Of a stretch of 64,000 nucleotides of DNA, positions 6,001-44,536 are shown piece by piece. The stretch comes from Candidatus Micrarchaeia archaeon (lineage in GTDB: Archaea > Micrarchaeota > Micrarchaeia > CAILAH01). Position numbers and translations under genes: made by a program. The stretch lies in the NCBI GenBank assembly GCA_038874595.1, contig JAVZCB010000002.1:96001-160000 (forward strand), given 5' to 3'. Within the stretch, counting starts at the first letter, position 1, and each line of letters starts with the position of its first letter. Below the pieces are notes generated by a model. The model did not search any database and was not told the origin of the DNA. It saw only the letters and a program-made list of their open reading frames with translations.

Positions 6001-9000
6001 ATTCTGTATATAAATGCCGTTCTCGCTGTTGTAAACAACATTGTTTGTAAAGTTGTTGTAGCCAGAGAAGGTTGCTATGCCTCCATAAGGTGTACAGCTA
6101 TAAACGGTATTATTATCTATCAGGTTGTAAGGTGATGATGTGTATGGTACTATGCCTGCCGCGGCATTGTATACTTTGTTCCCCCTTATGATGTTGCGGT
6201 TCGAAACATCTATGAGAATACCAACACCGCCTGAATTGCTAACAGTATTGTTTTCAACAAGATTTCCATAAGATTCAAGGTACAGCTGAATACCGTGCTC
6301 CTCGCTTGAGTCTACAGTGTTGTTAATCAGCTTGCTGTCAAAGACACCCTGTAAGAATATGCCGTTTTTATATCCGGTTATTGAACAGTTCTTAACAGTT
6401 ACATTATCCCTGTATACAGACAACACACCTATAGCATTGCTCACACCATTATTGGATATAGAATAGCCGTTGCAATCAAATTCAACATTTGAAGTGTTAA
6501 CAAAAATGCATACATTCTTGTTTACATAGGGTAGCCCTGTGTTTGGCGCACCGTATATATCATTGCGTATAGTATATCTTCCTGGCTGGTTTATTACCAT
6601 ACATATTGATGTTGTATTCTCCAAAATCCCGTATATGCTGGCTGGATTATGATTGAATAAAGAGAGCGTATTAAAGTTCACATCGGGACTTTGGTTTACC
6701 TGCGACCACACCCCGCTGCTATATTTGAACAAGCTAAACCTGTTTTCATTATAACCGCTCGTTTCCTGGTCATCCCAATGCCATACTATCTTATCTATTG
6801 AAGGGGTCCCTGAAACCGTAGATATGTCTACAAATTTCCTTCTAAATGAAACTGCATCGGTAGGCAATGCACTCGAGTTTGTTGTCCATTTTATGTAATA
6901 TTGCTCAGAGGACGGGACAACATCGTTTAGAGATAATATAGTATAATTTTGCTTTATGCCGGCAGGGCTATCTATCATCACGTTTGAAAGATTGTATGTA
7001 AGAGGGCCATTTAAAACGCGAATATCATTAGTGTTGTTGTAATAATGATCCCTGTCTACAAAAACATTTGTCGCGTTATTTATCCATAATGAGTAATATT
7101 GGTTTGTGCCTATCGTATTGTTGTAGAGAGATATGGTATTTGCCTTTGTGTTAAGATAAATACCCACATAGTTCTGCCGGCCGGTATTGTTTGCCAGTGT
7201 TGTGTTGTATGCGCTCTGGTAAATCTCATAAGCATAGTATGAGCATTTGCTTGCATTGTTGAATGCAACTATGTTGTGGCTTGAACTGTACCCTATAGCA
7301 TAGCCGTCGCGCGTAAAGTTATATGCGCGGTTCCTGAATATCTTGTTATAATTGGACGACCCTACAACAACGTAGCCATATCTGCCATTGTAGATATTGT
7401 TAAGTGAAATGTTATTGTAATGGGAAGCTGTTAAATAGACAGTATAACCATAGTTGGTATTTGTATAATTATAGAGCGTATTGTTGATAACTTTGTTATA
7501 TGAGGAGCTTGCCAATGAGATGCCATAAACATTACCACTATGCACCGTGTTATCCTGTATTGTTGTGTTCTGTGAGCTGCCTAAAGCAATCCCGTTATTT
7601 GTGGTGTAATATATCCTGTTTGACGTGATTGTGTTGTTATGGCTTGTATCTATGTATACTCCATAACGGCCAACACGATAAATGGTGTTATTATGTATGA
7701 GGTTTTTGTTTGAGGTTAAGGATACATAAACGCCATCCTGTGCTGATTGGTAAATTATGTTGCGTGTGAGATTATTGCTGGGAGATAAATACCTCACTGC
7801 CAGCCCACCTAATGTATTATTATAGAGGGTATTGTTTGTCAGAAGGTTATTCTGGGAATTATAAAATATGATTGCACCATATTGTGAGTTGTTGTAGATT
7901 GTATTTTTGTATATCTTGTTATTCTGTGCATTATACGTTGCAATTCCTTGCGTATAGTTAAGTACTTTGCAGTTCCTTATCGTAACATTTGACCGTGTGG
8001 AATCTACAAGTATACCAACAGCACCATTCGGTCCGAGCGTGCCATCATTTTTCACTGCGTACCCCATACAATCAAGAATAACGTTTGATGCATTAACATC
8101 TATACACGCTCTGACCTGCATCCCGACTTCTGGCAGAGAAACGAGTACTGGCGCACCAGTAACATTGTTGAATAAGATATACGTGCCAGATGAAGATATT
8201 ACTCCACAAGATGAGCCTGTGAAACTGAATAAGCCATAAACCGCTGGGAAGTTAACATTTGACAGACGTATTTGGTTGTTTGCAGTGTCCGGAGTGTTAT
8301 TGAACAAAACCCAACTGCCACTTGTATAGTTGTACCCCCATAACTCGAACGTGCCCTCATCATACCCCGGCAGCTCACTATCACTCCACGTGAATACAAC
8401 ATTGTCTATGCTTGTTGTTGTGCTGTTTATCAAGACATATTTATCTTTGAAAGAGACCCTGCCGGCTGGAGGGGACGCCGGTGCAGATGACCATTTCATA
8501 TAATACGGGATAGAGGAGGTATCTGTGAAGGACAAATTAGTGAATTTGCTTAAACCGTTTGTGGGCGAATCAAATGTTATGCCTGCGGCGGTTATTGAAG
8601 ATGAAGTATCAGGATAAAATACAAAATCAGTACTGCTCCCATTGTATATTCTCATATTTGATAAAGTAACCTGCGAAGATGTAATGTATAAGTTATGCTG
8701 GCTTGAGTGGTAAGTTGAATTTGAAATCTGGATATTATCGTCTTTTATAACCCTTAGCCCATACGCTCCAAAAGAAGCTGTGTTGTTCTTGATTATGTTA
8801 TATGATGTAAAGTGCGCAAAGTTTTGTGATATGATGTTTGCACTTGATGAGTTATAAACCGTGTTGTTTACTACTGTTATATTATAGGTGTTGTGAAGGA
8901 GGTTTATACCAACCCAGTTATTGTGTACTTTGTTATTTGTAATAATCGAATTTGATGCATTATACACTGTTATCCCATACATGTATTTAGATACGTTACA

Positions 9001-12000
9001 GTTCTTTACGGTTACATTTGACCGCCGTGTATCAACAAATATGCCCCCTGTGGTGCCACCAACATCTGTGTTTCTTATGAAATGGCCATCACAATCAAAA
9101 ACAACGTTTGATGCGTTTATCTCCACACACACCTTGGCGTCCATACCTAAATCGGCCAGATGTACATCAATTGGTGCACCTTCAAGGTTATTCTTTATTT
9201 TGTAGTTGCCGCTCTCGTTTATTATTATACAGGAATAAATGTCTGATGAGGTGGTATAACCACTGAACGAGGTTACATTAAACAAGACGTAATCCCCTGT
9301 GCAGGAGAGCAGCCTGCAGTTTGGGCACAAAAGGCCATATGTCAAAATCTCATTTCGTGATGTCGGGAACCCCGGCTTTTTGTATATTTTGAGCTTATTG
9401 CATGATGATGTGTTAAGTGTTATATTGGCAGGGATGTTTGTAAGTGTCGGCGCGTTTAAAGACACAAAATCTGGGGCTGCACGATAGTTAGTGGTATTTA
9501 CATCTGTGTACTGGATGTAAAAATCACCCATCTTTATCTTTCCAATCGATGAGTTATACCCCATCACCAACCCAACAAAACGTGGATTCTTCAGATAATT
9601 TACGGACCGGTTAACGAATAATGGAGATGAGGTGTTGTAAATTTGGATGTTATTGAACACAATCGCATAATCTCCTGTACCAACAAGGTAGTTTATGGCA
9701 TATAATCCATAGTTTGTTGTATTTTGTATATATGCGTTTTCTATTTTTGCAAATGTCACATTGTTAAGATATAACCCATAGCCACCACAGTTAGAGAACG
9801 AGTTGTTAAGGAATTTGTTAACCCCTTCGTACATAAATTCCCTGATGATCATACAGCTGCTCCCACACCTGTTAATTGAGTTGTTTGCAATTAATATCTC
9901 CTTTCCATACGAGACATCTGCTCCATCAATTACATCTACAAGCTGATTATTCGTAATATTAGAATAAGCAATCTCGGATAAAACAATTCCGTTTGAGTTT
10001 GATGAGAAAGTATTATTATTAAATTTAAAAAAACTTAGGGTTGTACCTGTAAGTTTTCTTGTGTTCGTAAAAGTATTATTTTCGAATTTAGATATCAAAA
10101 CGTTTGATACTACGCTCTGGCCAGCATCTACAAAACGGTTATCATAAACATCAATAGAGATTAGATTCTTTATATGTAATGCGCCTTCCATCCCCTTTAT
10201 AGTGTTGTTATAAATTTCAGTGTAAGCTAAATTCATTTCATCAGAATATGCTGTAATGCCCCATGCACAACCTCCGCATTTTCCATCTATGTGGTTATTG
10301 AATATCTGAAGAGAGTTTGGGTTCGCAACGCTTTTTAGGTAATAAATAAATATTCCACCAAGGTCTGAAATCAAAAGTGATCCTCCAAATGGGCCCTCAA
10401 TGGTATTATTATATATCGAAGATGAATGTATTGAATTTGCTAAAATAGTAATTCCTCCATTTGTATCTTTAATCGTATTGTTATATACCTTGGCATTTTG
10501 CATATCAATCATAACTATAGCTGTAGGTACTCCAAATTCTTGAGTATCTATAAACTGCTCAAAATAATTTCCACTGATATTCAAACCATCTTTTGATGAG
10601 GCAAAATAAATACTTATGGCATTTTTATAAAACGTGTTATATACAAACGTGATGTTTTCAGCAACTCCGGTTATAAAAAAACCAACACCTGTATTTGTTA
10701 CGTTATTTTTAGCGATTGTCACATTCTTTAAGGTCGTGACACAAGAAAAACAGGACTTTAGTAAATAACAGGTGTTGTTATAAAATGAGATATTCTCTAT
10801 GAGCTTATTTGATATATCCATATCTTTCAGTAAGTATGTACCGTCTTTTGCAATGTTGTTAGATATATTTGAATTAATCATATTTCGCACATAGATATAT
10901 CCCTTGTTATCCTGAATCTCACAGCCACTTGAATTCATAAAACGGTTCCCAATTATACGACTTTCACTAATATTTAATGCGATAATACCACTGCAGAATT
11001 CAGATTTACCTATATTTTGCACATTATTGCGGTTGATTGATACATTATACAAGTTTGAATAATACGAGAAAACAACAGAGGTTATTGTTTGAGGGAGGCG
11101 AGATGTGTTAACTAAATCAAGCGTATTCCCTGATATCTCGGAATTTGCAAGGATTTCAACTAGATAATTAACATAAACACCTATTGACGTGTTGAATATC
11201 TTATTATTTGATATGTTTATGTCCCAGAGGGTTTTCTTAAAGCTAGGGGATAATGTTCCTTCAGAAAGAGATACGCCAAAAGTACAGCTGGAAATGTTGT
11301 TTGATGATATCTCAATGTTGCTTGCTTTTGATATTTCTACAAATGATTGATAAAGCGGATCGTTTGCCGGCTGGTTTGGAGGGGGGTTTATCTTGTTATG
11401 GCGGATTATATCCTTTGTTGAATCCTGTTTATTTTCAAAAATAATTGCAGGAACGTTTTCACTAAGTAATCTCCTATTGAATTTATTATACTGAATTGAG
11501 TTCCCGCCATAATAATTCTGTATATATATCTCTAAAACTAAACTATAAAATGAGTTATTGAAGATTGTTGCGTTGCTCTCGTTTAACCATATACCGGTAA
11601 TGATGCCGTTAATGCGGTTTGAGGCAACACTTATATTTCTTGATTTTATTACATGTAAGGCCAGAATATCAACAGTTGAAAAATTAAAGACGCTGTTTGC
11701 TATAATTGATGAGTTTGTATTAACAAATTTAACACTTTCATTATTGGTCTTAAAACCAAATTGTGTGGAATTTACTATTATATATTTTGAACCCTCAGTG
11801 TATATACCTGCATTTGTGTGGCCTTCAATCAGCCCTTTTTGAATGGTTGTGTACTCAGAATTTACACTACATACTCCTCTATAGCCATAGTATGTTTGTA
11901 TAGGGATACCTCCTGTATAAACAGTGAAGTTGCTCCTATCAATAAATGAGCCCGTGCTTGAGATGATGTTTACACCACAATACTCATTTGCGAGCAATTT

Positions 12001-13530
12001 TGAGGTTCTTATTAAGGTATTATTGCTACTCGTGACCAAAATCCCATCATACTTATTCCTCCTTGCAATTGAATTTGTTATATTCACATCTAGGGAATTA
12101 GAAAGTGATATCCCCACCCCTCCTATCTTTGTTCCGTAAACTATTGTTCCATAAGCATTGTATACATTTGTGTTAGTTATTTCTGAGTTGTTTACATTGT
12201 CAAAAAGTATATTCACACCATACCCAGTAACCGTACAAGATGTTATTAGAATATTGCGCCTGTTCTCAGCATAAATTCCTACTGAAGTGGCATCATTTGA
12301 TGAAGATGAAATCGTATACCCATTACAGCTTAAGATTACGTTGTTTGCGTTTATGTTTATGCAATGGTTATCTGACTGCACACCTGAGATAGACCTCATC
12401 AAAACATAGGTATTGCCTTCTGTGTCAAGGTTTCCACAAAATCCAATATATATTGTTGGGTCAAGCGTAACCCATCCTTCAGGTGTGTAAAACCTCATAG
12501 ACCACTCCACACTTTCACTTGCATTTACTCTGAGGAACACTGTTTTTGACTCACCCGGACCAAGTATTACAGCATCGTAGTCCCTGCCCGCGGCCTTGGG
12601 CTTCTTCTTACTTACCTTCTCATAAATCTTAAACCCTGCTTCTGTCTTTTTGCCTCTATGCAGAGAAACCGCTTTTACTGCTTTTGCATCTGAAAATTTT
12701 GCATCATCCATCAATATTTCTACAGTGTTCTGGCTATCCATATTTTCAATATCTATTGGTACATCACAGATGTTATCATATAGACAATATACCTCCTTAT
12801 CTGCTGATATCCTTATGCTACCTGATGAAACCACCTTTTTATTATCAGCCACACTCTCTTGATAGTTTGCTGTCCTTGATAAATCAATATCTTCTGTGAG
12901 TGTATAATCATCAATCGCTGTTTGGTTTAAACCAATACCTAGTTCACTGCTGGCATTACTTAACGGCTCTTCAGGTGCCAGCCCCCAATCAATTGCACTC
13001 TCATCAGCCGTCTCATCGCTAGGAGGTTCCATCGAATTTGCTTCAGAAAAGTTGCTCTCAGGGACAGGTGGCAAAGGCTCACTTGCTATGTCCACTATAT
13101 CCACGTATAGGCCTGTTGCGTTCTGGGTTTTATCCTCATCAACCTGGATCTTGCTTATATCTGCATATATCGCATTATTGGAGGAGATATCCATCTCATC
13201 AATATCCGATTTAATATTATCAGCGTTCCATTGCTGCATTTCCTGCTGCTCTGATAAGTCTTCATTATCTGGATTATTCGCTTGCAGCGGCAGGCCAACG
13301 CTTGGCAGCACACCTGCTTCGTTTTGGGTTGAGGAGGGAGGTTGTGCTGTATCTGTATTCCATTTCGTCTGCATTTCATCCTGAATAGCAAAAGATTCGT
13401 TAGAAACATTCCCAATCTGTTGTGTATAAATGCTAAACGTATCATTAGAAAACGTCGCAAATATGCTCAGCAATGCTAAGAACAATGTTATATCTAATAT
13501 AAAAACAAAGACTGCCAAACGCCCATGCAT
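1..13530 (-). CDS. Giant (>4,510 aa, 3' end outside the window) secreted surface protein with parallel beta-helix (NosD/CASH/PbH1-like) modules
   Basis: ATG at 13530 gives MHGRLAVFVFILDITLFLALLSIFATFS (signal/anchor). The same frame is open at every point I translated (12960, 11460, 9300, 2460, 60-1: YSGYLLIGGTNNRLVNVSSY), and the ORF track lists no stop-bounded ORF in this frame. Six modules begin with C-x-I-x3-G-x-Y...C(V/I)xINxSNVxFDCxG(Y/H)xI...NVTVxNC and continue as Asn-rich beta-helix coils with many NxS/T sequons. Confidence 0.9.
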   Translation of the reverse strand, partial: MHGRLAVFVFILDITLFLALLSIFATFSNDTFSIYTQQIGNVSNESFAIQDEMQTKWNTDTAQPPSSTQNEAGVLPSVGLPLQANNPDNEDLSEQQEMQQWNADNIKSDIDEMDISSNNAIYADISKIQVDEDKTQNATGLYVDIVDIASEPLPPVPESNFSEANSMEPPSDETADESAIDWGLAPEEPLSNASSELGIGLNQTAIDDYTLTEDIDLSRTANYQESVADNKKVVSSGSIRISADKEVYCLYDNICDVPIDIENMDSQNTVEILMDDAKFSDAKAVKAVSLHRGKKTEAGFKIYEKVSKKKPKAAGRDYDAVILGPGESKTVFLRVNASESVEWSMRFYTPEGWVTLDPTIYIGFCGNLDTEGNTYVLMRSISGVQSDNHCININANNVILSCNGYTISSSSNDATSVGIYAENRRNILITSCTVTGYGVNILFDNVNNSEITNTNVYNAYGTIVYGTKIGGVGISLSNSLDVNITNSIARRNKYDGILVTSSNNTLIRTSKLLANEYCGVNIISSTGSFIDRSNFTVYTGGIPIQTYYGYRGVCSVNSEYTTIQKGLIEGHTNAGIYTEGSKYIIVNSTQFGFKTNNESVKFVNTNSSIIANSVFNFSTVDILALHVIKSRNISVASNRINGIITGIWLNESNATIFNNSFYSLVLEIYIQNYYGGNSIQYNKFNRRLLSENVPAIIFENKQDSTKDIIRHNKINPPPNQPANDPLYQSFVEISKASNIEISSNNISSCTFGVSLSEGTLSPSFKKTLWDINISNNKIFNTSIGVYVNYLVEILANSEISGNTLDLVNTSRLPQTITSVVFSYYSNLYNVSINRNNVQNIGKSEFCSGIIALNISESRIIGNRFMNSSGCEIQDNKGYIYVRNMINSNISNNIAKDGTYLLKDMDISNKLIENISFYNNTCYLLKSCFSCVTTLKNVTIAKNNVTNTGVGFFITGVAENITFVYNTFYKNAISIYFASSKDGLNISGNYFEQFIDTQEFGVPTAIVMIDMQNAKVYNNTIKDTNGGITILANSIHSSSIYNNTIEGPFGGSLLISDLGGIFIYYLKSVANPNSLQIFNNHIDGKCGGCAWGITAYSDEMNLAYTEIYNNTIKGMEGALHIKNLISIDVYDNRFVDAGQSVVSNVLISKFENNTFTNTRKLTGTTLSFFKFNNNTFSSNSNGIVLSEIAYSNITNNQLVDVIDGADVSYGKEILIANNSINRCGSSCMIIREFMYEGVNKFLNNSFSNCGGYGLYLNNVTFAKIENAYIQNTTNYGLYAINYLVGTGDYAIVFNNIQIYNTSSPLFVNRSVNYLKNPRFVGLVMGYNSSIGKIKMGDFYIQYTDVNTTNYRAAPDFVSLNAPTLTNIPANITLNTSSCNKLKIYKKPGFPTSRNEILTYGLLCPNCRLLSCTGDYVLFNVTSFSGYTTSSDIYSCIIINESGNYKIKNNLEGAPIDVHLADLGMDAKVCVEINASNVVFDCDGHFIRNTDVGGTTGGIFVDTRRSNVTVKNCNVSKYMYGITVYNASNSIITNNKVHNNWVGINLLHNTYNITVVNNTVYNSSSANIISQNFAHFTSYNIIKNNTASFGAYGLRVIKDDNIQISNSTYHSSQHNLYITSSQVTLSNMRIYNGSSTDFVFYPDTSSSITAAGITFDSPTNGLSKFTNLSFTDTSSIPYYMKWSSAPASPPAGRVSFKDKYVLINSTTTSIDNVVFTWSDSELPGYDEGTFELWGYNYTSGSWVLFNNTPDTANNQIRLSNVNFPAVYGLFSFTGSSCGVISSSGTYILFNNVTGAPVLVSLPEVGMQVRACIDVNASNVILDCMGYAVKNDGTLGPNGAVGILVDSTRSNVTIRNCKVLNYTQGIATYNAQNNKIYKNTIYNNSQYGAIIFYNSQNNLLTNNTLYNNTLGGLAVRYLSPSNNLTRNIIYQSAQDGVYVSLTSNKNLIHNNTIYRVGRYGVYIDTSHNNTITSNRIYYTTNNGIALGSSQNTTIQDNTVHSGNVYGISLASSSYNKVINNTLYNYTNTNYGYTVYLTASHYNNISLNNIYNGRYGYVVVGSSNYNKIFRNRAYNFTRDGYAIGYSSSHNIVAFNNASKCSYYAYEIYQSAYNTTLANNTGRQNYVGIYLNTKANTISLYNNTIGTNQYYSLWINNATNVFVDRDHYYNNTNDIRVLNGPLTYNLSNVMIDSPAGIKQNYTILSLNDVVPSSEQYYIKWTTNSSALPTDAVSFRRKFVDISTVSGTPSIDKIVWHWDDQETSGYNENRFSLFKYSSGVWSQVNQSPDVNFNTLSLFNHNPASIYGILENTTSICMVINQPGRYTIRNDIYGAPNTGLPYVNKNVCIFVNTSNVEFDCNGYSISNNGVSNAIGVLSVYRDNVTVKNCSITGYKNGIFLQGVFDSKLINNTVDSSEEHGIQLYLESYGNLVENNTVSNSGGVGILIDVSNRNIIRGNKVYNAAAGIVPYTSSPYNLIDNNTVYSCTPYGGIATFSGYNNFTNNVVYNSENGIYIQNANNNYISGNILRKNSIGLSINNGNDSIAQYNTIHNNTNTGIYVGYSENNTFRNSLLANNTNYGIIIHSSFNSSISNVTAERNLVGIHLGNNVNVSLNLSTARYNSLAGFRIIGGQRNLITNSIAHNNNDGIYLEISNNNLLSNVSAYYNTLNGILLHKSNRTLIRNSRAYQNTQFGFAINDSNYNNITDSYTSTNIGSEISSGVAIAFNSRNNILQNYTSYADLIGILIYNADNNIINSSNITQAYYSIYLAGTNNDYNSVINTTIKSQYHGIYSEGGTNNKYFNNTLIGPGGNGVGIYMKTGGESFNITRNIITQFKRGIHLESASCSDIFIDYNTVYGNSEYCIIEGGLNNKVRGNTVYNCLYGIFTAGSSSTMKNNEISGSGYGLFLQSPAALTANDTHLFNNSYDFYVGSISSGSYIRINNLTIDNPLGNFVNYTTLNLTDNYDAGASYYINWSSLNGITLPKMKRVFRNKVIDIKIASGTPSIDSISWQWKDSEVSGYDEGRLQLWKRNSTGWHLLNSTPNIQQNTLSLSNHIPLSNYTILESVNCPIINESGAYLMDSNYTGAPNAADPFSGYACVKITASNVIFDCEGYSIKNSGVQDSFGMLINGSVTNVTVSNCKVDGYDYNYVSYNSNLTKLLNSTLEDSQFNAYVYIGRNITLSGLVLNNSESHSIFVSTARDVLISNNTINYSTDGAGILVYRVNSSNILNNTVDWSYAGIGIYSEANSINITKNQVYNTQIYGGIFVNNADGIIITNNSGQNNNDGIYVSQVTSSKIVNNTFSQNFGYGARVLDSRNVEINSNIFFDNFEDGFYSSNLNDSRIIKNVIYLNKKEGCVFYKGRNNTIHNNTVYTNSKDGFDFTWSSYNNITSNIAYNNTQYGFAIGSSQNNSVSNNLAYNNSIGGFNVYYESTIQIGSNNNTLVNNTAERNRQFGFFIYRSSNNKFANNTARHNVNVSFALIRSNNNTLVNSSLYNSSFLVFVNESNYNNISYNSIYNSTYDCVAFMYNSNGNLLLHNQIYNCNYHGIEVNYYAYNITIIANNISGTAVNGIDLTRSLNNTIWLNNITNAYVAISLDRVNNTNIFGNRLYANRMAGMLFLRANNNDAANNSIYLNPVGASISGSVNTSLANNTLHSSSIVGYVFENQNNSIVSNEHIYNNSYDIFINSTFSGFVINITNTSIDNPLGNYVNYTRIYLSDVIDAGTSYVINWTSQPASLPTQRSSFRGKYLRISPIEGTPSIDSIKWHWADSETVGYKEQKLELWKYNTTHGWVLLNNTPDTVSNFLSLRDVVPLSEYGILQRNDSECFKISSSGSYVLYNNITGAPYTVYLSDINKQIAVCVEINSSNVVFDCMGYSVRNNGTNSIDGSIGVLVDANRQNVTVRNCKVQNYTHGVTTYLASGNFIHNNTVFNNSQFGILLAYMSNYNNVENNTLYNNSAAGLGAYISSQYNNFTNNTAYSNLYGFYIYASNSNKIIRGKSSNNSYGVRIEYSNNNNFTLYNSSNNSYDGFYLIGSVQNIINSSIASFNSQNGIVLRDGSTDNVIRNSTFTRNTAAGISIIRDSHNSKILQNNVSFNGQGGMIIHSYNLVLSVMYTNLSGNDIYNNSQFGILIGDRSPYSYIYNNSIHHNYGDGVLTASSNNTLMLNKVYRNQGHGLYFYPSRNQTIYGNSVYNNSYGITLSYCGNSSIILNNVTQNSNAGMLIYGTESTIITNNTVRLNQEGMLFQSNSQNNFIGSNKIANNSYYGIHMVESGNNLIKNNIFENHTTNNGKSILAEFVSNITVVENVFRMNYEHIRLRNSATSNISENNMSLSYSHATNVYNSSRINVSSNRISFAVFGGGIVYELGNLSVAYRNVINNSAFGIATNSSNHSIFENNTVYNCGSGAYAGYVIYQSDNNTMRNNIGYNNNPDGVLVYMSTRSNIINNTMYSNTKNGFDVFESSYNALNNNTAYLNGEYGFILNGAVYNNVTGGKSYNNSYSGYLLIGGTNNRLVNVSSY

Positions 13531-13813
13531 CAATTCTTATGTAATGACAAAGTTTATAAAGAATAATTTAGGTTACGCATCTTTAGATTCTATTATGATA
13601 TTATTGCAATAGATTTAATACAGTATATAGAGTTTTTTAGTACAATGTATAACATAGGTTACGTATACAACAAACAGCATGTTGGGCGGTGTTGTATGTT
13701 ATAAAAAAGGATCTTTTTCTGAAAAGCAACAGCACATCTTCCGGCCTCTTTAAGTTTTACTTTTGTGATTGAAATTAGCAAATGCTTAAAAAAAGCCAAA
13801 CTATAATTTTAGC

Positions 13814-19084: not shown

Positions 19085-19207
19085 GCCCCAGTAACTCAGA
19101 CTGGTAGAGTGCGTCCTTGGTAGGGCTTTTTCTTTGGCAAGGAAAAACCATGGAAAAAGAGCAATCCGGAAAGGACGAAGTCGGGAGTTCAAATCTCCCC
19201 TGGGGCT
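19085..19207 (+). tRNA. tRNA-Thr(GGT) with a 49-nt intron at canonical position 37/38 (intron 19123-19171)
   Basis: Acceptor GCCCCAG/CTGGGGC plus discriminator T; D-arm ACTC/GAGT; anticodon stem CGTCC/GGACG with loop TT-GGT-A^A; T-arm GGGAG-TTCAAAT-CTCCC; bulge-helix-bulge-like pairing TTGG/CCGG; no encoded CCA. Confidence 0.95.
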
Positions 19208-36087: not shown

Positions 36088-36765
36088 TTATTTTTTGTTT
36101 GCTGCTTTTAACGCATCTCTCCTACCAAACATGCACATCCTAAAAAGAGGGCAGGATATGCATTTCGGGTTTGATTTTGTGCAGTGTTTCTTGGCGTGTT
36201 CTACCAGGAGAGCGTGCATCTCATTATATTTTGGTGCACTTTTTCCGAGCGCCTTCTCAAACACGGTGCGCACCTTTTCATAATCAAGTGCTGTGCTTTC
36301 ATTTCCTTCAAAAACGCGGCCATAGATGCGTTTTGTGTATGCATCAACCACAAAAATCGGCTTGTTGAAAGCATATAATAAAATTGAATCTGCTGTTTCA
36401 CGGCCTATCCCTTTTAATGAAAGCAGGTGGGCACGCGCATCGTGCAGAGACATTTTTCTTATTGCATCAAAGTACACGTGCCTGCAGAAATATTTGAGCC
36501 TGGCCGCCTTTTGCCTATAAAACCCTGCTGGCTTAATGGCCTTCTCAAGAATATGTGTTGGAGAATCAAGTATTGCCGAACCACTGAGCAGGTTGCCTCT
36601 TTTCATGTTTGCAATCGCTTTCTCAACGTTTTTCCAGGAAGTATTCTGGGTAAGTATTGCACCAACGCATACCTCAAATGGTGTATCGGCCGGCCACCAG
36701 TTCTGTTTTCCATAAGTGCGGCTCAGGATATTAAACATAGTGCGTATTCCGCTGCCTACATCCAT
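36088..36765 (-). CDS. Endonuclease III-related HhH-GPD protein with FCL [4Fe-4S] motif
   Basis: WWP..TPFEVCVGAILTQNT, LKGIGRETADSILLY, VVDAY, CTKSNPKCISCPLFRMC. Confidence 0.92.
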   Translation of the reverse strand: MDVGSGIRTMFNILSRTYGKQNWWPADTPFEVCVGAILTQNTSWKNVEKAIANMKRGNLLSGSAILDSPTHILEKAIKPAGFYRQKAARLKYFCRHVYFDAIRKMSLHDARAHLLSLKGIGRETADSILLYAFNKPIFVVDAYTKRIYGRVFEGNESTALDYEKVRTVFEKALGKSAPKYNEMHALLVEHAKKHCTKSNPKCISCPLFRMCMFGRRDALKAANKK

Positions 36766-36800: not shown

Positions 36801-37952
36801 CTAGCGCACCCTTATCTTGGAATTACCCTGCTCTAAGGAAGCTACCGCATTCTTTTTAAGGAGTTTTTTATTGAGGTCTTTATAAGTTGGGGAAGGGTAA
36901 TTTGCATTTGCAAGTGCCATTTCCTTTAACTTAGTATGGCTTATTTTTCCAGTCGCAAAATCAACAAATTCTGGGTAATAGGTGCTAAGTATTGTGAGCA
37001 TAGCAAGAACTTTTGGCACATAATTTACATTCTCAACAAAGCCGCGCAGTGCGTCTGGCTTATTACCTGTATTTTCGGCGCTTGCCACTAAAAATTTAAG
37101 GTAGTCTTGATAAGAGATGGGTTTTTTGCTCTTCTTTGAATTTGCAAGATATTTCCAAGGAAGGCCTGAATTGTATGCTGAAAGTGTAAGGTACATGTCT
37201 CGATTAAAAGTTATATAGAGATCGTAAAGTAGTTGTGCAGCAGCTTTTGCGGAGTCATAGTTCTTATGACGCTTATCGGTCACACCAATCAATCTGCCTT
37301 TTTTATCACGATGCTCCCTGACAAGCCCATATTTTATTGCGGTTTCCCGCGTGAACTGGTAAGGTCCAGCGGCTTTCTTGGGCGAAGAAGTATATGACCA
37401 ATTTGATTCTACTAAAGGAATGAAAGATAATGCCCTTAACTCTTCACGTTCTTTTGGCGTAAGGTTGCCGTTCTTGGCTTCACGCTCAGCAAGCCCTTCT
37501 TGAAATCCTCTCACAGCACCTAGGAGTTCACCTTTACGAAGCGTGCGAAACAGCGCGCTCTGGATTACGTTTGAGTGTGTGCCTGTAGTGTATTCCATAA
37601 CCCAGACCTGGCTAAGAATAGATACTGCATCTGGGCAAGACCTAACTAATTCGAGTAAAAATTTAGGGTCTTTTCTTAAAGATGTGCTCGATATTGGAGG
37701 GAGCTTGCATTTTTGCGGCTCGCTCTCATTATCTCTTTCTTCGGAAACGCCATTCGGGTCCTGAAGAAGCATCTCAAGTGCGGAGTTGGTTGATTGATTC
37801 CTGCATACGTTACTGTTATTGTCGTCATTGCTGTAAATATAACTTTCATTAGGGCTAACACTAGATGTACGGGAAGGAGGAAACAAAGATGCTGCAAATA
37901 TTGCGCTCGGCAGCAGCACAGCCGCGACGAGCCTTTTGAGTAGCCCACTCAT
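36801..37952 (-). CDS. Secreted lytic transglycosylase (SLT/MltD-like, GH23)
   Basis: N-terminal hydrophobic signal; IPLVESNW (catalytic Glu), AAGPYQF...TAIKYGL, DKR...SAKAAAQLL, LSAYNSG, ENVNYVPKVLA. Confidence 0.85.
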   Translation of the reverse strand: MSGLLKRLVAAVLLPSAIFAASLFPPSRTSSVSPNESYIYSNDDNNSNVCRNQSTNSALEMLLQDPNGVSEERDNESEPQKCKLPPISSTSLRKDPKFLLELVRSCPDAVSILSQVWVMEYTTGTHSNVIQSALFRTLRKGELLGAVRGFQEGLAEREAKNGNLTPKEREELRALSFIPLVESNWSYTSSPKKAAGPYQFTRETAIKYGLVREHRDKKGRLIGVTDKRHKNYDSAKAAAQLLYDLYITFNRDMYLTLSAYNSGLPWKYLANSKKSKKPISYQDYLKFLVASAENTGNKPDALRGFVENVNYVPKVLAMLTILSTYYPEFVDFATGKISHTKLKEMALANANYPSPTYKDLNKKLLKKNAVASLEQGNSKIRVR

Positions 37953-38003: not shown

Positions 38004-38627
38004 CTATTGTTGAGATGGCTGTGGCTTTTGCGGCTCCTTGAGCAGAATCTCGGTGCTCTCAGCCTGCTTGAGCATCACAATATCCTCTTCATTAACAAAA
38101 ACGTAGTGTGCGGATGCAAGATTGCTGTATATCCTCTTTTGTGCAGACATCTGGGCCGGCTCATCAACTATCTTTGCAATCCCTGTCCACACACCAAACC
38201 ATCCGGCAACCATAAGTATGCTAAACATTGCGCTCAATAAAGGGTAGGATTCCTTTGGGGTGAAAACATCAAGGAGAATTATCAGTGCTCCTGCCACAAT
38301 ATATTTGATGCCCCTTCTCTGATAACTGTGGATTTCGCTGGTATAACTCTCAACCCTCTTTGCAAAGTGCTGGCGTATCCTTCTTATTATTGCTCGCTCA
38401 ACTGTGGGGTCGCGCTTGGATGAGGGAATTGATAATGTAATCTGGAGCTCTTTTGTGTCATACTCGCCACTAGTGCGTTTTATAAGCTCCTTCACAAAAT
38501 CCTCTGAGAGCTCGCGCTTTGAATAATGCGAAATATCAAAATCAGAATATAAGTCTTCGTAGCTCTCCAGCGCAATGTCTATATTCTTAAAAGAAATCTT
38601 TTCCATCAGACCACTTACCATAATCAC
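38004..38627 (-). CDS. Conserved hypothetical two-TM membrane protein
   Basis: IDIALESYEDLYSDFD...RELSEDF N-terminal domain, two TM helices, GWFGVWTG. Confidence 0.75.
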   Translation of the reverse strand: MIMVSGLMEKISFKNIDIALESYEDLYSDFDISHYSKRELSEDFVKELIKRTSGEYDTKELQITLSIPSSKRDPTVERAIIRRIRQHFAKRVESYTSEIHSYQRRGIKYIVAGALIILLDVFTPKESYPLLSAMFSILMVAGWFGVWTGIAKIVDEPAQMSAQKRIYSNLASAHYVFVNEEDIVMLKQAESTEILLKEPQKPQPSQQ

Positions 38628-38648: not shown

Positions 38649-41015
38649 TTACCGCGTCGGTGGATTTTTATTGCCTTGACTGCTGTTACCATTATCCTTT
38701 CCATTGCCACCACTCTTTGGTTGGGCATCTTTGCTTACTGGAGGTTGCCCGCTCATCTCTTCACGTATAACCTCTTCAACTTCCTTCCCTGCTATGACTT
38801 CCCTGCTCACCTTTTCAGCTTCTTCCTTGAGCGCACGCTGGCGTGCGCGCTCATCCGCCCACGAGCGATACGAAATGGAAAGCACTAGCGCTGCAGCCAC
38901 AACTCCTATCACAGGAATGGTCGCTAATGCGGCAATCACAGGTACAAAGAAGTATGCTGCCTTGTGCATGTTTGTCCTACCGAGATATGCTGCTGCAGCA
39001 GCCATCGCAATAACAACAACCCATATCAAATCACACAAAATAACCGGGAGGCCTTCAACATAAAACCCTTCACAGCCGGACTTGACAAGCGCACCCAGCC
39101 CTATTGTCTCTGATATAAACTCTGCTGCAGATTTAGGAGGCTTCTTTTCAATAATTGGCTTCTCAAAGGGCTTTTCAGGTGGCCTCTCAGGTATCTCTAT
39201 CACGCCTCGGTAAGGCTCGCATCCTTCCTTGGACATAACAATAGTATAATTATTTGGGATCTCAACACGCACGTTTATCTCGCCAAACGAATTTGTATCG
39301 TAAATATAATCTCCTATAACAACGCGGACATCACTTATACACTCCTTATCTGGTGAGGTTGCGGTTATGATGAAGTTCTCTTTAGAATACATCTCCTTCG
39401 GGAAAAGCGGGATTATGGGGGGCCAGCTCACTTGGATTGTCCCCTTAAACGTTTGGTAATCCTCCTTACGTGCGGTAAAATCATAACCGCCCGGCTCGGC
39501 AAGTACTATGCTTGTGACCTTGCCATCCGCTCCTGTCGTATAAGTTGGTTTGCCTTTTATCCGTATTTCAACATCCTGAAGAGGGCGGCCAAATGAGCTT
39601 GCTAATACATCAAACTCTTGCCGTGCATAAACGCTTGGTGGATAATCTATATTAAGTGGGTAAAGAAATACATTGACAACTGCGGCGCCATCATCATAAA
39701 GCGCTTTCTTGGCAACAATTGCATATATACCTGGGATTCTAACGGCACCTGGAGAGAATACGCACCTGCCATCCGGGCCCGTTGTGCACACATCTGCAAC
39801 CGCACCTGATGGGGAATATAGTTTTGCCTGGGCACCATCAACTGGCTTGCCCGTCCTTGGGTCTGTTATCGTTACAGAAATCTCTGTACGGACATAGAGC
39901 TCGCTTGGTGATGCAACAGCCAACTTTACTTTTTGGAGGTCAAAATATTCCTCATCCGAACGGATATATCCTCCCTTTGATGCATATGCATAATAGGTTC
40001 CTGCCTCATCAAGAGCAGAGGGGTCTGCCGTATATATTCCGTTCTCATCTGTCTTTCCTGTATCAACAAGGGTGGAAAAACCTCCGTGCTCACGGTAAAC
40101 ACGCACCGTGGCATCTCTTACCGGGTCCCTGCTCGATACTGTAAAAACGACTGGGTCATTAATATACCCTGTTGTTGATACTGAAATGTAAAGGTTTTGC
40201 AGTCTCTCTTCGCCGCCACAGCCCGGTATTGGTACGCACACGCCCCCATCACATCTCTGGCAGTAACCACAGTCTAAATCTGTGATGCATGCAGGCGTAT
40301 AAAGCTTCGCTGTCAGGTTGTTGACTTTTATGTATGTATAGTTGGTCCGTGGAAACACTGCATCCGTGACCCTGTCAACAAGCGTACTATTAATAAAACC
40401 GCTGGCGTTCCATAGAGACACAATAAGATATGGCTTGTTTGTGGTTATTTCACTGTTGCCCGAGTAGTATATTTTCTCAAGGTGTATTACTGTGTTAGTT
40501 GGTGTTGATTTATCAGAATACCTATACTCCCCATAAAGGAGGCCAGTATAGTTAGTAAGGTCAACAAATTGCGGGTTCTGCATCAGTGGTGATGTTGAGA
40601 TGCCTATCGAGAGAATCCCCGGGTAAAATGCTTTGTAAACACTCGTGTCAACATCAACTACTGTGCAGTTTGAAGCATTTACATAAGTTATATTTGCAGG
40701 TATTAACCCTATGCTTATGTTGATTGCCCCTGACCGGTAATAAATAGAAACAAACTTTCCTATGAGCTCTGTACCCTGGTCAGCGCACAGCTCAACATAT
40801 ACATTCGGGTTGGCAAAGGAAGTGTCAACATATGTTGCAGTCCGCGTATCAAAGTAGAGCGTTGCGTTCGAGCCGTTGATAAACACAAGCCGGCCCGAAG
40901 TTATTGCTGCTGAAGGGGCTGATGACACAAGCAGGAATACCAGGATTGCTATAAGTATTGCCCTGCTATGCAAGGGATTTCCTGCCACTGTGTTGCGTTT
41001 ATGCATAACTTGCAC
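38649..41015 (-). CDS. Membrane-anchored surface protein with tandem Ig-like (carboxypeptidase-regulatory-like) repeats
   Basis: Signal peptide; Cys knot CITDLDCGYCQRCDGGVC; four repeats of the form TDxxG...GxYxxxAxKxGY; three C-terminal TM segments and a charged tail. Confidence 0.8.
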   Translation of the reverse strand: MQVMHKRNTVAGNPLHSRAILIAILVFLLVSSAPSAAITSGRLVFINGSNATLYFDTRTATYVDTSFANPNVYVELCADQGTELIGKFVSIYYRSGAINISIGLIPANITYVNASNCTVVDVDTSVYKAFYPGILSIGISTSPLMQNPQFVDLTNYTGLLYGEYRYSDKSTPTNTVIHLEKIYYSGNSEITTNKPYLIVSLWNASGFINSTLVDRVTDAVFPRTNYTYIKVNNLTAKLYTPACITDLDCGYCQRCDGGVCVPIPGCGGEERLQNLYISVSTTGYINDPVVFTVSSRDPVRDATVRVYREHGGFSTLVDTGKTDENGIYTADPSALDEAGTYYAYASKGGYIRSDEEYFDLQKVKLAVASPSELYVRTEISVTITDPRTGKPVDGAQAKLYSPSGAVADVCTTGPDGRCVFSPGAVRIPGIYAIVAKKALYDDGAAVVNVFLYPLNIDYPPSVYARQEFDVLASSFGRPLQDVEIRIKGKPTYTTGADGKVTSIVLAEPGGYDFTARKEDYQTFKGTIQVSWPPIIPLFPKEMYSKENFIITATSPDKECISDVRVVIGDYIYDTNSFGEINVRVEIPNNYTIVMSKEGCEPYRGVIEIPERPPEKPFEKPIIEKKPPKSAAEFISETIGLGALVKSGCEGFYVEGLPVILCDLIWVVVIAMAAAAAYLGRTNMHKAAYFFVPVIAALATIPVIGVVAAALVLSISYRSWADERARQRALKEEAEKVSREVIAGKEVEEVIREEMSGQPPVSKDAQPKSGGNGKDNGNSSQGNKNPPTR

Positions 41016-41021
41016 CTCAAC

Positions 41022-42740
41022 CTACCCTATCCACTTTGAGAGTGCTGCAAACACGTTGTATGCAAACTGCGCTATTTGAGAGATATATTCGTCCCGGTGC
41101 ATTGGGTTTGCAGTGCCCTCCTCAGCCTGTGAAGGTATACGCGCGCTCATATTCAGCAAAGTAAAGTTATACTGGCTTATTAATGCCGTACCGTTTGTCT
41201 GTTGCAGCTCCTCACCTGAGGTTATATTGTAAACCTTGAGGTATAGTGAATATTCCCCTACGTAATTTGAAACCTGCAGATATGCATATTCAGGAGTATA
41301 CAGTTTGTTGCCTGTTGGGATTATTGTATAATTGACAATGCCAAAGCGGGTTCTTGACTCGCCGTAGCTAACTGATTTAAGGCCCCTGTAAGGAGATGTT
41401 GTGCTATCTATGCGCTGTATAGGCGAAAACAGGCTTATGCCATTCACTTCATACATGCGCACCGTAACGTTTGCTGGCACACCATCACTGTCTGTAACGT
41501 TTATTGTGAGGTTGTACGGCCTGCCCGCATCAGGAAATGTTTTTGATTCAATACCATTTATGAATGTGCGAACCCGGTATGTCTTTACAATCGTTAGCAC
41601 CGCAGAACTTTGGTTGTTTGACAAATCACAATCGGCAATTGTGGTCGGGGCGAGCCTCGCCAATATTGTATGTGGCCCTGATGAGTTAAGGCCCGTATTA
41701 AGCGTAAATGACCTGGTTGTTGATGTGTATTTTGCGAGCCCGCCCGCAACTGTAAGCACTTGTGTGGGTATACCATCAAAATAGACGTTGACATCAAAGG
41801 GCTGGGTGATATCAACATTTCCATCATTTCTTATTGTAACCGTGACAAGGACTTGGCCGCCGGCAAACTGCGTTGACGGAGCCAAGCTTACACCAACAAC
41901 CGCCGGGTCCGGGCCAATACAGAAAGACCTATCTATACCGTTTATCAAATAGTACTTTGTGTACTTTGCAGTGTCTGGTGGGGAGACCACTCCTGTATGT
42001 AGCGAGTATGCAACACCGCGCGATACACCTGACCTGCCACCTGTACACGCCCATGCAAAAAGAGAAGGTGACGGCTCACATATGCCTAGCTGGAAGTATG
42101 GAAGGTTTACGTTGTTCGTTGCCGAACCGGTACGTGTATAACTTGTAACCCCTGTTATTGTGAGAGTAACATTACCGGTTGCACTGTTGTATGTGCTTTC
42201 TACATCGTTTGTTGTGTATGCACCACGAAGGTGGCTCTTTGGGCCAACCGCTATGAAGGTATCTGATTCTGTGAACACCTGGTCATCTGAAACGATTGCA
42301 TATATGTACGCAGGGTAAACTGCCGTGCCGCTGTAGAAATTGTACGGGCCTACCGGCTGGCCGCCAACATTGTTTATTGCACTCATACAGCACGTGCCAG
42401 AGCAGTTAGTAAGCTGGGTATGGTCTTTCCCTGTATTATCCTTTGATATGTTTTGGAACCCGGCAACGTTACCTGTCCTGTATACAAACATTACGTACTT
42501 ATTCTGTATTTCTCCAATATTGCCCGGTGCATCAACACAAACCTGTACAACTGTGTCTGGATTACCGCCTACGGAATCAATATATGAAGTGCTCCCTATA
42601 TCCCAGCTCATATTTACGGGAACGCGTTGTGCCTGATTGAAACTCACATTCAAGATTGTTGCGCTTGTTATTGACGCGTATGAGAGCGGTAAGGCAATCA
42701 AGAGTAACAAGAGGAACTTTTTCTTTATCATAAGATGCAC
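41022..42740 (-). CDS. Secreted CARDB-domain surface protein
   Basis: Signal peptide; PDPAVVGV...VTIRNDGN...GPHTILARL...DCDLSNN CARDB pattern. Confidence 0.8.
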   Translation of the reverse strand: MHLMIKKKFLLLLLIALPLSYASITSATILNVSFNQAQRVPVNMSWDIGSTSYIDSVGGNPDTVVQVCVDAPGNIGEIQNKYVMFVYRTGNVAGFQNISKDNTGKDHTQLTNCSGTCCMSAINNVGGQPVGPYNFYSGTAVYPAYIYAIVSDDQVFTESDTFIAVGPKSHLRGAYTTNDVESTYNSATGNVTLTITGVTSYTRTGSATNNVNLPYFQLGICEPSPSLFAWACTGGRSGVSRGVAYSLHTGVVSPPDTAKYTKYYLINGIDRSFCIGPDPAVVGVSLAPSTQFAGGQVLVTVTIRNDGNVDITQPFDVNVYFDGIPTQVLTVAGGLAKYTSTTRSFTLNTGLNSSGPHTILARLAPTTIADCDLSNNQSSAVLTIVKTYRVRTFINGIESKTFPDAGRPYNLTINVTDSDGVPANVTVRMYEVNGISLFSPIQRIDSTTSPYRGLKSVSYGESRTRFGIVNYTIIPTGNKLYTPEYAYLQVSNYVGEYSLYLKVYNITSGEELQQTNGTALISQYNFTLLNMSARIPSQAEEGTANPMHRDEYISQIAQFAYNVFAALSKWIG

Positions 42741-42823
42741 CTTATGCTGCTGAGTATAATTGCGTATGTATTATTTAAATATATATCAGAAGAAGGAGGG
42801 AGGTAATTAACGTTAAGCAATAT

Positions 42824-44536
42824 TTACTGCACCCTAAACAGCATGTTTATATTGTCAACAAATGTGTTTAGAATCCCCATGAATCCTGGCCTTGGCAGGT
42901 CTGGAACATTTATGTTAAGCACGCATGCGCCGTTGCTGCATCCCTGAGTGCACCTTACCCTTGTATTGGTAATTTGGTTATATGTGGTGCAGGAATACTC
43001 TATAACGTAATCCCCATCGCACTGGTCCGTCCGTGCTTGGTGGCCTCGTGTTACCGTTGACCTTTTGAAAATGCTTCCATCGCCATCCTCTTTATCCGGG
43101 TCAACACAATAAATGCCATCCCATATCTTTCCATTCCAGCATTCTTGGTAATTGCTTGCCGTGTATGTCTGGTAATTGAAGCTGTACGGGGATGTGCAGT
43201 AATACTCTGTAAGACGCTCAAAGCTGTTGCACGTGTCACTATATTTAGAATTGCCATATAAAAGCTCACCGTATATTTTGGGGTAGTTGCCGCCATCTGT
43301 ATCATAACAGTAAATGTACTGCTGGCCATCGGCATCACTCTCTCGAACACACTTACCAAGAGAGCATACATAACCAGCTGGGCAGTGCTGGATAACATAA
43401 TCCACATCGCCTTTGGATGTACAATAATAATCCCTTACACGATAGCTGTCAATGCATTCGTCCCTATAAGTAGTAAAGTAACCCGTGGGATATTGATAGA
43501 TAACATCCCCACTGACATATATTTCCTGCCCAACATCTGTATCATAACAGGTCGATGAAAGGTTCACGCAAGCACCGCCATAACAATTATAACCTGCCGG
43601 ACATTTTTTGGTGAACATCTGAAGGTTTGACCCTTCACAGTAATATTCTTTTATTTCGGTTGAAGAAATGCATGAATCTGTATATTCGACACCACGAACA
43701 AATGCCTTGCCCGGTGTGTAAATATCCTTGCCATCACTATCCTGGCAGCTGTTTGATTTGCATGCGCCATCATCACAAATGAAACCTGTAGGGCAAACTG
43801 TTATTTGTGAATCTATCTGCCCATCCTGCGCACAGTAAAAATCAAGCACCTTTTGTGAATTAATGCAATAGTCTGTTTTACTTACGTTGCCGGCAGAAAC
43901 TGTATCTTTCATGTATATATTATAGGGTGTGTCTGTGAGGTTTGAGGTTGTGGTACAGCCCTCAATACACATTCCATCAGAGCACACATAACCTGCCTGG
44001 CAGAAAACCACGGCCTCTTTAATCTCGTTGTTATCGCAGTAGTACTTTACAACCCTATTATTATCAAGGCAGTGGTCTTCTTTTATTACGTCTGCTTTTG
44101 TGGTTTTTCCTTTTGAGTAAGGTGAGAGGCTGTTATCAGAATCTGTGCATTTTGGTAAAACGCATGCACCGCTTTCACAAATATATCCTGCCGGGCACTG
44201 TTCCCGTACGGACTGTATGGCGCCGTTAGCACAGTAGTACTCAAGCACCATTCCACCCGAGCATGAATCGGTGTATGTGTTTCCGTTAATGGTTACCGTA
44301 CCTGCCTGCATAAGGTTTTTTCCGTTGTCACTTTCACTGCATACTGCACAAGCCCCATCATATGCAACTGTTGTACCGGAAGCACTTGCTTTGCAGGCAT
44401 TTCTGTATGTGATGCCGTCAGCACCGCATACCGGGGCGTACGTATCATCACAGTTAAACTGCGTTACGCATCCGCTTATTATAATTATCGAGAAAAGCAC
44501 TGATGCCAGTACGGCCCCGTGGATAAATTGGCGCAT
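42824..44536 (-). CDS. Lipoprotein with a Kazal domain and seven Cys-rich repeats
   Basis: Lipobox-like ISGC; Kazal CDDTYAPVCGADGITYRNAC; repeats CxDxDxG...DxC...EYYC...CPxGYxCxxGxC. Confidence 0.85.
   Translation of the reverse strand: MRQFIHGAVLASVLFSIIIISGCVTQFNCDDTYAPVCGADGITYRNACKASASGTTVAYDGACAVCSESDNGKNLMQAGTVTINGNTYTDSCSGGMVLEYYCANGAIQSVREQCPAGYICESGACVLPKCTDSDNSLSPYSKGKTTKADVIKEDHCLDNNRVVKYYCDNNEIKEAVVFCQAGYVCSDGMCIEGCTTTSNLTDTPYNIYMKDTVSAGNVSKTDYCINSQKVLDFYCAQDGQIDSQITVCPTGFICDDGACKSNSCQDSDGKDIYTPGKAFVRGVEYTDSCISSTEIKEYYCEGSNLQMFTKKCPAGYNCYGGACVNLSSTCYDTDVGQEIYVSGDVIYQYPTGYFTTYRDECIDSYRVRDYYCTSKGDVDYVIQHCPAGYVCSLGKCVRESDADGQQYIYCYDTDGGNYPKIYGELLYGNSKYSDTCNSFERLTEYYCTSPYSFNYQTYTASNYQECWNGKIWDGIYCVDPDKEDGDGSIFKRSTVTRGHQARTDQCDGDYVIEYSCTTYNQITNTRVRCTQGCSNGACVLNINVPDLPRPGFMGILNTFVDNINMLFRVQ

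Follow-up and report, generated by a model that had tools for sequence, protein, structure and literature searches.

The gene described here, located 37 kb inside a 64,000-nucleotide stretch of a Micrarchaeota metagenome-assembled genome (MAG), encodes an intact, probably exported MltD-like lytic transglycosylase of glycoside hydrolase family 23 (GH23) devoid of LysM domains. The stretch, called the window hereafter, corresponds to G000:C2:96001-160000 and forms part of a 216,714-bp contig. The host genome, G000, comprises 917,795 bp in 7 contigs and is 93.5% complete, with 0.05% contamination. The encoded protein, P0001, is read with moderate confidence as an exported glycan-strand cutter acting on bacterial murein.

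Architecture and family assignment of P0001

A search against Pfam matched a single family in P0001, SLT (PF01464), with 36.9 bits against a cut-off of 21.3, over residues 168-266. The signature of the lytic transglycosylases, consisting of a single Glu (E182-S183), G196..Q199, A259-Y-N-S-G263 and Y311, was invariant or nearly so among the homologs. In the alignment, E182, S183, G196, Q199, Y260, and N261 were invariant across 38 homologs, and 15 columns were invariant in the archaeal family even though its paralogs are about 30% identical. Since these active-site residues are invariant in 38 homologs, the similarity goes beyond a chance match of motifs, and the pattern indicates that the active site is maintained by selection. 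P0001 is thus predicted to be a catalytically competent lytic transglycosylase of family 1 (MltD type, GH23).

When P0001 was used as a single sequence, no match was obtained among the solved structures, but the profile built from the alignment matched MltD of Pseudomonas aeruginosa (PDB 8rhe) with an E-value of 4e-34 and aligned the catalytic ES pairs, Glu182 lying opposite the Glu of the IES motif. The AlphaFold model of P0001 showed a mostly helical, lysozyme-like catalytic fold, with a mean predicted local distance difference test (pLDDT) score of 81 and values above 90 across residues 90-350. Foldseek returned MltD as the top match of this model, with a probability of 1.00 and clearly above the lysozymes. 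The label "MltD-like catalytic domain" (subfamily 1D type) is justified by the concordance of the hidden Markov model (HMM), the fold and the motifs.

The protein is not MltD proper. It reached only 36.3 bits against the NCBIfam MltD equivalog (NF008050/PRK10783), whose cut-off is 508, and the match covered positions 118-203 of the 457 in the profile. P0001 is about 24% identical to MltD of P. aeruginosa (PDB 8rhe/8rhf/8rhi) and Escherichia coli (b0211), lacks the lipobox Cys and the C-terminal LysM repeats of these proteins, and has instead a Ser/Asn-rich (S/N-rich) linker and a basic tail (Table 1). LysM is a murein- and chitin-binding module; no LysM match was detected in P0001 at E ≤ 0.1, nor anywhere in the host genome in a genome-wide search.

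The N-terminus consists of MSGLLKR followed by around 17 hydrophobic residues, the sole strong hydropathy peak of the protein (maximum of 2.19 at residues 8-22), and this combination of basic and hydrophobic residues was also observed in the orthologs P0002-P0005, P0009, and P0010. Inspection revealed no class III (prepilin) motif of the type [K/R][G/A/S] ahead of the hydrophobic stretch and no lipobox after it, the first Cys being residue 50. A pilin-type carrier was rejected, given the missing class III motif and the lack of pilus genes among the neighbors. The linker that follows (residues 27-95) is composed of S/N/T/D/E/P to 61%, contains four N-x-S/T sequons, a DPNG motif and the conserved Cys50 and Cys82, and is disordered or of low confidence in the model (pLDDT 38-78). 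The N-terminal Sec-type signal or anchor would export the enzyme, and the flexible, probably glycosylated linker would hold it at or beyond the surface of the Micrarchaeota cell.

An earlier reading of this DNA, made without database searches (the sequence-only reading), had described most of this architecture and had proposed a profile search and a phylogeny. The limits of the open reading frame (ORF) that it gave were reproduced exactly, on the minus strand, with a length of 383 aa and ATG as the start codon. Each motif that it quoted was located in P0001 (VES at residues 181-183, AAGPYQF, AYNSG, and ENVNYVPK), its S/N-rich linker and its lack of LysM were confirmed, and its signal peptide was recognized as a sequence pattern, K6/R7 plus the hydrophobic run, shared with the orthologs. 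The SLT profile exceeded its curated cut-off and the modeled fold was lysozyme-like with MltD as the best match. The MltD-like identity that it had proposed stands for the catalytic domain, of GH23 and MltD type by HMM, fold and motifs, but not at the level of the MltD equivalog.

Table 1. Features of the P0001 gene and its immediate surroundings, in window coordinates.
Feature	Coordinates	Strand	Basis
Coding sequence of the SLT/GH23 protein P0001, 383 aa (stop codon included)	36801..37952	minus	ORF list, translation, Pfam SLT
Residues 1-26, n-region and hydrophobic segment (predicted Sec-type signal peptide or N-terminal membrane anchor)	37875..37952	minus	Hydropathy
Residues 27-95, S/N-rich linker	37668..37874	minus	Composition, sequons, pLDDT, alignment
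Residues 96-350, all-helical lysozyme-like catalytic domain, MltD type, with beta-hairpin insert at about 211-226	36903..37667	minus	
Codon of the predicted catalytic Glu182 (E-S motif)	37407..37409	minus	Invariance, profile alignment with MltD 8rhe
Motif II, AAGPYQF (GLMQ equivalent), residues 194-200	37353..37373	minus	G196 and Q199 invariant
Motif III, AYNSG, residues 259-263	37164..37178	minus	Y260 and N261 invariant
Motif IV, ENVNYVPK, residues 307-314 (MltD-type E-x-x-x-Y-V/P-x-K)	37011..37034	minus	N310 invariant in the archaeal family
Residues 351-383, C-terminal tail, basic (8 K/R vs 2 D/E) and of low confidence in the model	36804..36902	minus	Model and composition
A/T-rich spacer of 51 bp before the start codon	37953..38003	minus	Read from the sequence
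Upstream neighbor, two-helix membrane protein of 207 aa, no Pfam family	38004..38627	minus	Pfam and synteny
Downstream neighbor, endonuclease III (HhH-GPD); brackets the filled/empty site together with the membrane-protein gene	36088..36765	minus	Pfam and synteny

Phylogeny, distribution and conservation of the locus

An exhaustive search of 1.84 billion representatives returned 168 matches, around a dozen of which were similar to P0001 outside the SLT core. The nearest homolog was labelled Candidatus Micrarchaeota archaeon, and the next tier included proteins of Candidatus Moranbacteria (E-value 1e-17, 49% identity over the core). The search for related loci found no relative when it was seeded with P0001 alone, and recovered them when a narrower alignment was used as the seed. 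A tree of 62 rows and 157 columns was then calculated with the model LG+C20+F+G4 and rooted on E. coli MltD. A pseudogene with a very long branch (L007), two long or partial rows (L042 and L032) and most of the unnamed representatives were left out.

Every row from genomes of the family of G000 (f1) was placed in an archaeal clade of 14 rows (support 98/97). Its sister clade (37 rows, 98/86) contained Moran-, Falkow-, and Parcubacteria together with MAGs labelled "uncultured Gammaproteobacteria". These two clades and two unnamed sequences constituted a clade of 53 rows (100/99), separated by a long branch (1.15) from Bacteroidota, Marinimicrobia, and E. coli MltD. The phylogeny proposed in the sequence-only reading thus yielded a DPANN clade, formed by one Micrarchaeota family, whose nearest bacterial relatives are of CPR (Candidate Phyla Radiation) type.

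The MltD-like SLT proteins of CPR/Patescibacteria, such as that of Moranbacteria (OGI26575.1, P0013) and those of the Falkow- and Parcubacteria loci L024-L045, share with the archaeal ones the beta-hairpin insert, an ESxW motif and a SYxGYL segment. The bacterial relatives encode Mur ligases and hence have a wall of their own to remodel, and many CPR proteins carry LysM or twin-arginine-translocation (TAT)-type signals, whereas the archaeal proteins form their separate clade. We infer that the gene passed once from a bacterium of a CPR-related lineage to an archaeon and was duplicated afterwards; this event is not rooted by the tree itself, and its direction is taken from the bacterial outgroups and the native substrate of the enzyme. 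The ancestor of the archaeal family would have acquired the gene from a bacterium related to the present CPR/Patescibacteria, and the gene would then have duplicated within the family, giving some paralogs with LysM and the P0001 subclade without it. Read in this manner, the tree adds a concrete case of genes passing between DPANN archaea and bacteria of CPR type.

As a separate observation, the four MAGs labelled "uncultured Gammaproteobacteria bacterium" (G301-G304; loci L025, L029, L034, and L046) are only 0.9-1.4 Mb in size and encode Mur ligases, and in the tree their MltD-like proteins are intermingled with those of CPR. Their taxonomic labels may be wrong.

The LysM-less subclade that includes P0001 comprises 7 rows (99/97). 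Bona fide LysM domains were found in the archaeal paralogs P0007, P0008, and P0011, and weak ones in P0009 and P0010. P0001-like genes were detected in four of the eight other genomes of the family, spread over three genera, and in none of the 52 other genomes of the class searched with P0001. Matches to PF01464 in general were obtained in 97 of 301 genomes of the class (53 of the 169 of high quality), in open frames ranging from about 150 to 2700 aa. The ten best SLT proteins of this survey (loci L012-L021) gave nothing or at most 17.5 bits against the profile of the P0001 clade and, as P0001 matches nothing outside the family, the possibility that these class-wide domains represent the same gene was rejected. 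SLT domains are therefore common across Micrarchaeia, in heterogeneous subfamilies, and not only in Woese- and Pacearchaeota.

G000 itself carries a second SLT gene about 54 kb upstream of the window on the same contig (L001:970-1887). It encodes a protein of 305 aa (Pfam SLT, 50.8 bits) with the motifs AEQSG, GLMQIT, and AAYNAG and no N-terminal hydrophobic segment, belongs to a different SLT subfamily, and lies beside a gene for a Cys-rich secreted protein.

The position of the P0001 gene was compared with that in related genomes. In G002, an independent MAG of the same genus, the order surface protein, 207-aa membrane protein, SLT protein, endonuclease III and HIT protein is the same as in G000; the neighbors are 78%, 82%, and 75% identical between both genomes, and the SLT orthologs 55%. 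In G003, from another genus, the same site (L058, G003:C23:4166-7705) is empty: the genes for the surface protein (43% identity), the membrane protein (45%), endonuclease III (61%) and the HIT protein follow one another without the SLT gene, and those for the membrane protein and endonuclease III overlap. The site is thus conserved, filled in G002 and empty in G003, and the SLT gene behaves there as a presence/absence character. The GC content of this gene (0.428) and its GC content at third codon positions (GC3, 0.391) lie inside the range of the neighboring genes, which argues that the acquisition was not recent.

These data bear on the concern, already raised in the sequence-only reading, that the contig might be chimeric at this point. 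The protein family is bacterial, and its nearest outgroup consists of CPR bacteria, which often co-occur with DPANN archaea, so that one could imagine a piece of bacterial DNA having been attached to an archaeal contig during assembly or binning. This is scarcely credible for a gene placed far inside a long contig with archaeal genes on both sides, with a composition like that of its neighbors and in a genome with so little contamination. Moreover, the gene order recurs identically in an independent MAG, the site is found empty in another genus, and orthologous loci come from named Micrarchaeota MAGs, which NCBI now places under the phylum Microcaldota. A chimeric contig or contamination was rejected on this conserved synteny.

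The distribution of the gene might also suggest a neutral or decaying leftover of an old horizontal transfer, with an intact frame and no role. It is patchy within the family, one site is empty, the orthologs are poorly conserved, and the copy of G004 (L007, G004:C5:22521-23207), with an in-frame TAA and a branch of 3.27, is likely a pseudogene. Such an outcome is nevertheless very unlikely, given that catalytic and substrate-binding residues remain invariant across such divergent paralogs, that the gene was repeatedly duplicated and retained in G001, where three or more paralogs are present, including a tandem pair, and that a streamlined 0.9-Mb genome has kept both the gene and its signal segment.

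Putative substrate and role of the enzyme

Archaea lack murein, and no match to Mur_ligase_M, Transpeptidase (penicillin-binding protein, PBP), GT51 or FtsW/RodA (SEDS) was obtained in the 93.5%-complete genome G000 by profile searches that were positive in 10-12 of the 14 reference genomes used as controls. Since no wall-synthesis genes were found, the host cell appears to have no murein of its own to remodel, nor any pseudomurein built by Mur-type ligases, in contrast with the murein-making bacteria that carry MltD, and the remodeling of its own wall was rejected as the role of P0001. From the invariant active site and the export segment we infer a working extracellular enzyme, whose substrate would come from outside the cell. 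The substrate would be foreign because neither murein nor pseudomurein synthesis genes were seen in the genome; most likely, it would be the MurNAc-beta-1,4-GlcNAc bond of bacterial peptidoglycan, the bond between N-acetylmuramic acid (MurNAc) and N-acetylglucosamine (GlcNAc) that lytic transglycosylases cleave. Glu182 is predicted to act as the single acid/base and to leave 1,6-anhydroMurNAc ends.

The recycling genes were also searched for in G000, and neither AnmK nor GH3/NagZ was found; M23 and Amidase_2 partner hydrolases were not found either, and NlpC/P60 stayed below threshold. These results make a complete muropeptide-feeding pathway unlikely and point to local breaching of a wall or to antagonism. 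Scavenging, in which murein debris would be digested for its amino sugars and peptides without attacking living cells, would suit a small enzyme of soluble type with no targeting module, and DPANN archaea are believed to rely on scavenged building blocks (PMC8204110). It is considered improbable in view of the missing AnmK, GH3/NagZ, amidase and endopeptidase partners, a weak argument inasmuch as the completeness of the genome is 93.5% and no search covered other routes of uptake. With AnmK and NagZ not detected, the breaching of a wall is a better fit than scavenging, and the likely use of the enzyme would be a local opening of the bacterial wall for contact, access or antagonism and not muropeptide feeding. 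In the same genome, a 283-aa frame (L053, G000:C5:87068-87415) gave a sub-threshold match to NlpC/P60 (21.5 bits against a cut-off of 23) and may be a second murein-directed enzyme.

Several points weigh against an action on bacterial murein. The SLT orthologs are less conserved than the genes around them and one member of the family is a pseudogene, so that selection on the gene may be relaxed in places. Neither LysM nor any other recognizable wall-binding module was found in P0001, and the partner hydrolases named above are missing. To our knowledge, no bacterial partner of Micrarchaeota is known. The cultured members of the phylum have wall-less archaea as hosts (Chen et al., 2018; PMC5864196). 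In addition, MltD also binds chito-oligosaccharides, as stated in the title of PDB entry 8rhi, which makes a GlcNAc polymer other than murein a possible substrate.

In the main rival explanation, itself rather unlikely, the enzyme would have been repurposed for a non-murein GlcNAc glycan, such as chitin or chito-oligosaccharides or the surface glycans of an archaeal host or of the cell itself, and would serve the attachment to, or the remodeling of, an archaeal partner. The LysM-less condition of the P0001 subclade, the faster evolution of the SLT protein than of its neighbors, the archaeal hosts of the cultured strains and the ligand of MltD would all be in line with it. The entire set of lytic transglycosylase motifs is invariant, however, including the arrangement of the single Glu in E-S, and the top structural match is a murein enzyme that scores clearly above the lysozymes. 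In a check that was not rigorous, no additional catalytic carboxylate such as those of chitinases or lysozymes was identified.

The cutting of bacterial murein outside the cell is preferred, and a more specific scenario can be put forward as a speculation that we regard as somewhat unlikely: members of this Micrarchaeota family could be in physical contact with bacteria, possibly CPR of the lineage that provided the enzyme, and open the wall of the partner with the exported cutter and, in sister genomes, with the LysM-bearing paralogs. If this were so, the archaeon would be an episymbiont or predator acting across domains, in a phylum for which no cultured hosts other than wall-less archaea are known.

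The sequence-only reading had considered such an enzyme notable for a DPANN cell, an appraisal that was overstated. A lytic murein transglycosylase exportable by the Sec pathway and signal recognition particle (Sec-SRP) was reported in three Micrarchaeota genomes as evidence for the targeting of bacteria (Chen et al., 2018; PMC5864196). For Woese- and Pacearchaeota, Castelle et al. (2021; PMC8204110), who cite Rinke 2013 and Castelle 2015, described large murein-like lytic transglycosylase proteins (fam00969). The same bacteria-directed interpretation was repeated by Vigneron et al. (2022; PMC9723730) and in PMC10936187. According to the extracts of these accounts, the published DPANN proteins belong to the same superfamily as P0001 and are read in the same manner, as Sec-exported enzymes aimed at bacterial cell walls; the occurrence of SLT enzymes in DPANN archaea and the idea of a bacterial target are thus already known. 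Compared by description, those of Woese- and Pacearchaeota are large proteins of several domains that reach about 3000 aa, whereas P0001 has 383 aa and SLT as its sole recognizable domain. In the extracts of PMC5864196, PMC8204110, and PMC9723730, no mention was found of a CPR-related origin, of an MltD-type clade restricted to one family, of paralogs with and without LysM, or of a filled and an empty site. Within the reach of those extracts, the clade confined to one Micrarchaeota family, its LysM-bearing and LysM-less paralogs, and the filled/empty site are increments on a known idea.

Should P0001 cut bacterial murein at the archaeal surface, this would support the notion that bacteria, and not archaea alone, are partners, prey or competitors of certain DPANN archaea, among them Micrarchaeota. 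The idea of an interaction between bacteria and DPANN archaea has been in the literature since 2013, and neither an enzyme assay nor a bacterial partner was found in the extracts of the published accounts. P0001 is a convenient candidate for such a test, as a small, single-domain protein that should be expressed far more easily than the Woese- and Pacearchaeota proteins of 1000-3000 aa, for which an E182Q variant is the obvious control and paralogs with LysM are naturally available to compare.

Neighboring genes and other observations in the window

The gene content of the window includes deoxyhypusine synthase, an AMMECR1/Memo/radical-SAM trio, a NiFe hydrogenase, alanyl-tRNA synthetase (AlaRS) and CTP synthase. 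The archaeal character that the sequence-only reading had attributed to these surroundings was supported by the deoxyhypusine synthase, the trio and an intron-sized tRNA, and the host is a DPANN archaeon, in agreement with that reading. The tRNA (19085-19207, plus strand), 123 nt long with room for an intron, was detected with Rfam and is absent from the ARAGORN calls.

In four genomes, the gene immediately upstream of the SLT gene is that of the 207-aa membrane protein, a conserved protein with 82% identity between G000 and the sister MAG and 36-47% across the family. A pairing of the holin-endolysin type was set aside, as this protein occurs without the SLT gene in G003 and unlinked from the SLT pseudogene in G004; the adjacency of the two genes may simply reflect the insertion site. 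None of the neighboring ORFs scanned matched a phage or integrase family, no dedicated search for proviruses or mobile elements being made, and a reading of the locus as a provirus or mobile element was rejected with that same limit.

The spacer ahead of P0001 contains the TATA-like boxes TATAAAATA and TTTTTATTTT, the latter located around 25-30 nt ahead of the ATG. Given this suitable distance, the spacer is possibly an archaeal promoter of the SLT gene itself, despite the co-directional run of surface-protein genes. These genes (38649-44536, minus strand), a candidate cell-surface cluster just upstream, encode large secreted or anchored proteins of 788 aa (CarboxypepD_reg repeats and a C-terminal membrane anchor), 572 aa (CARDB) and 570 aa (N-terminal Kazal). 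At the start of the window, an open frame of giant size, with more than 4511 aa (1-13533, minus strand), runs off the edge, with a GC content of 0.374 against 0.44 in the rest.
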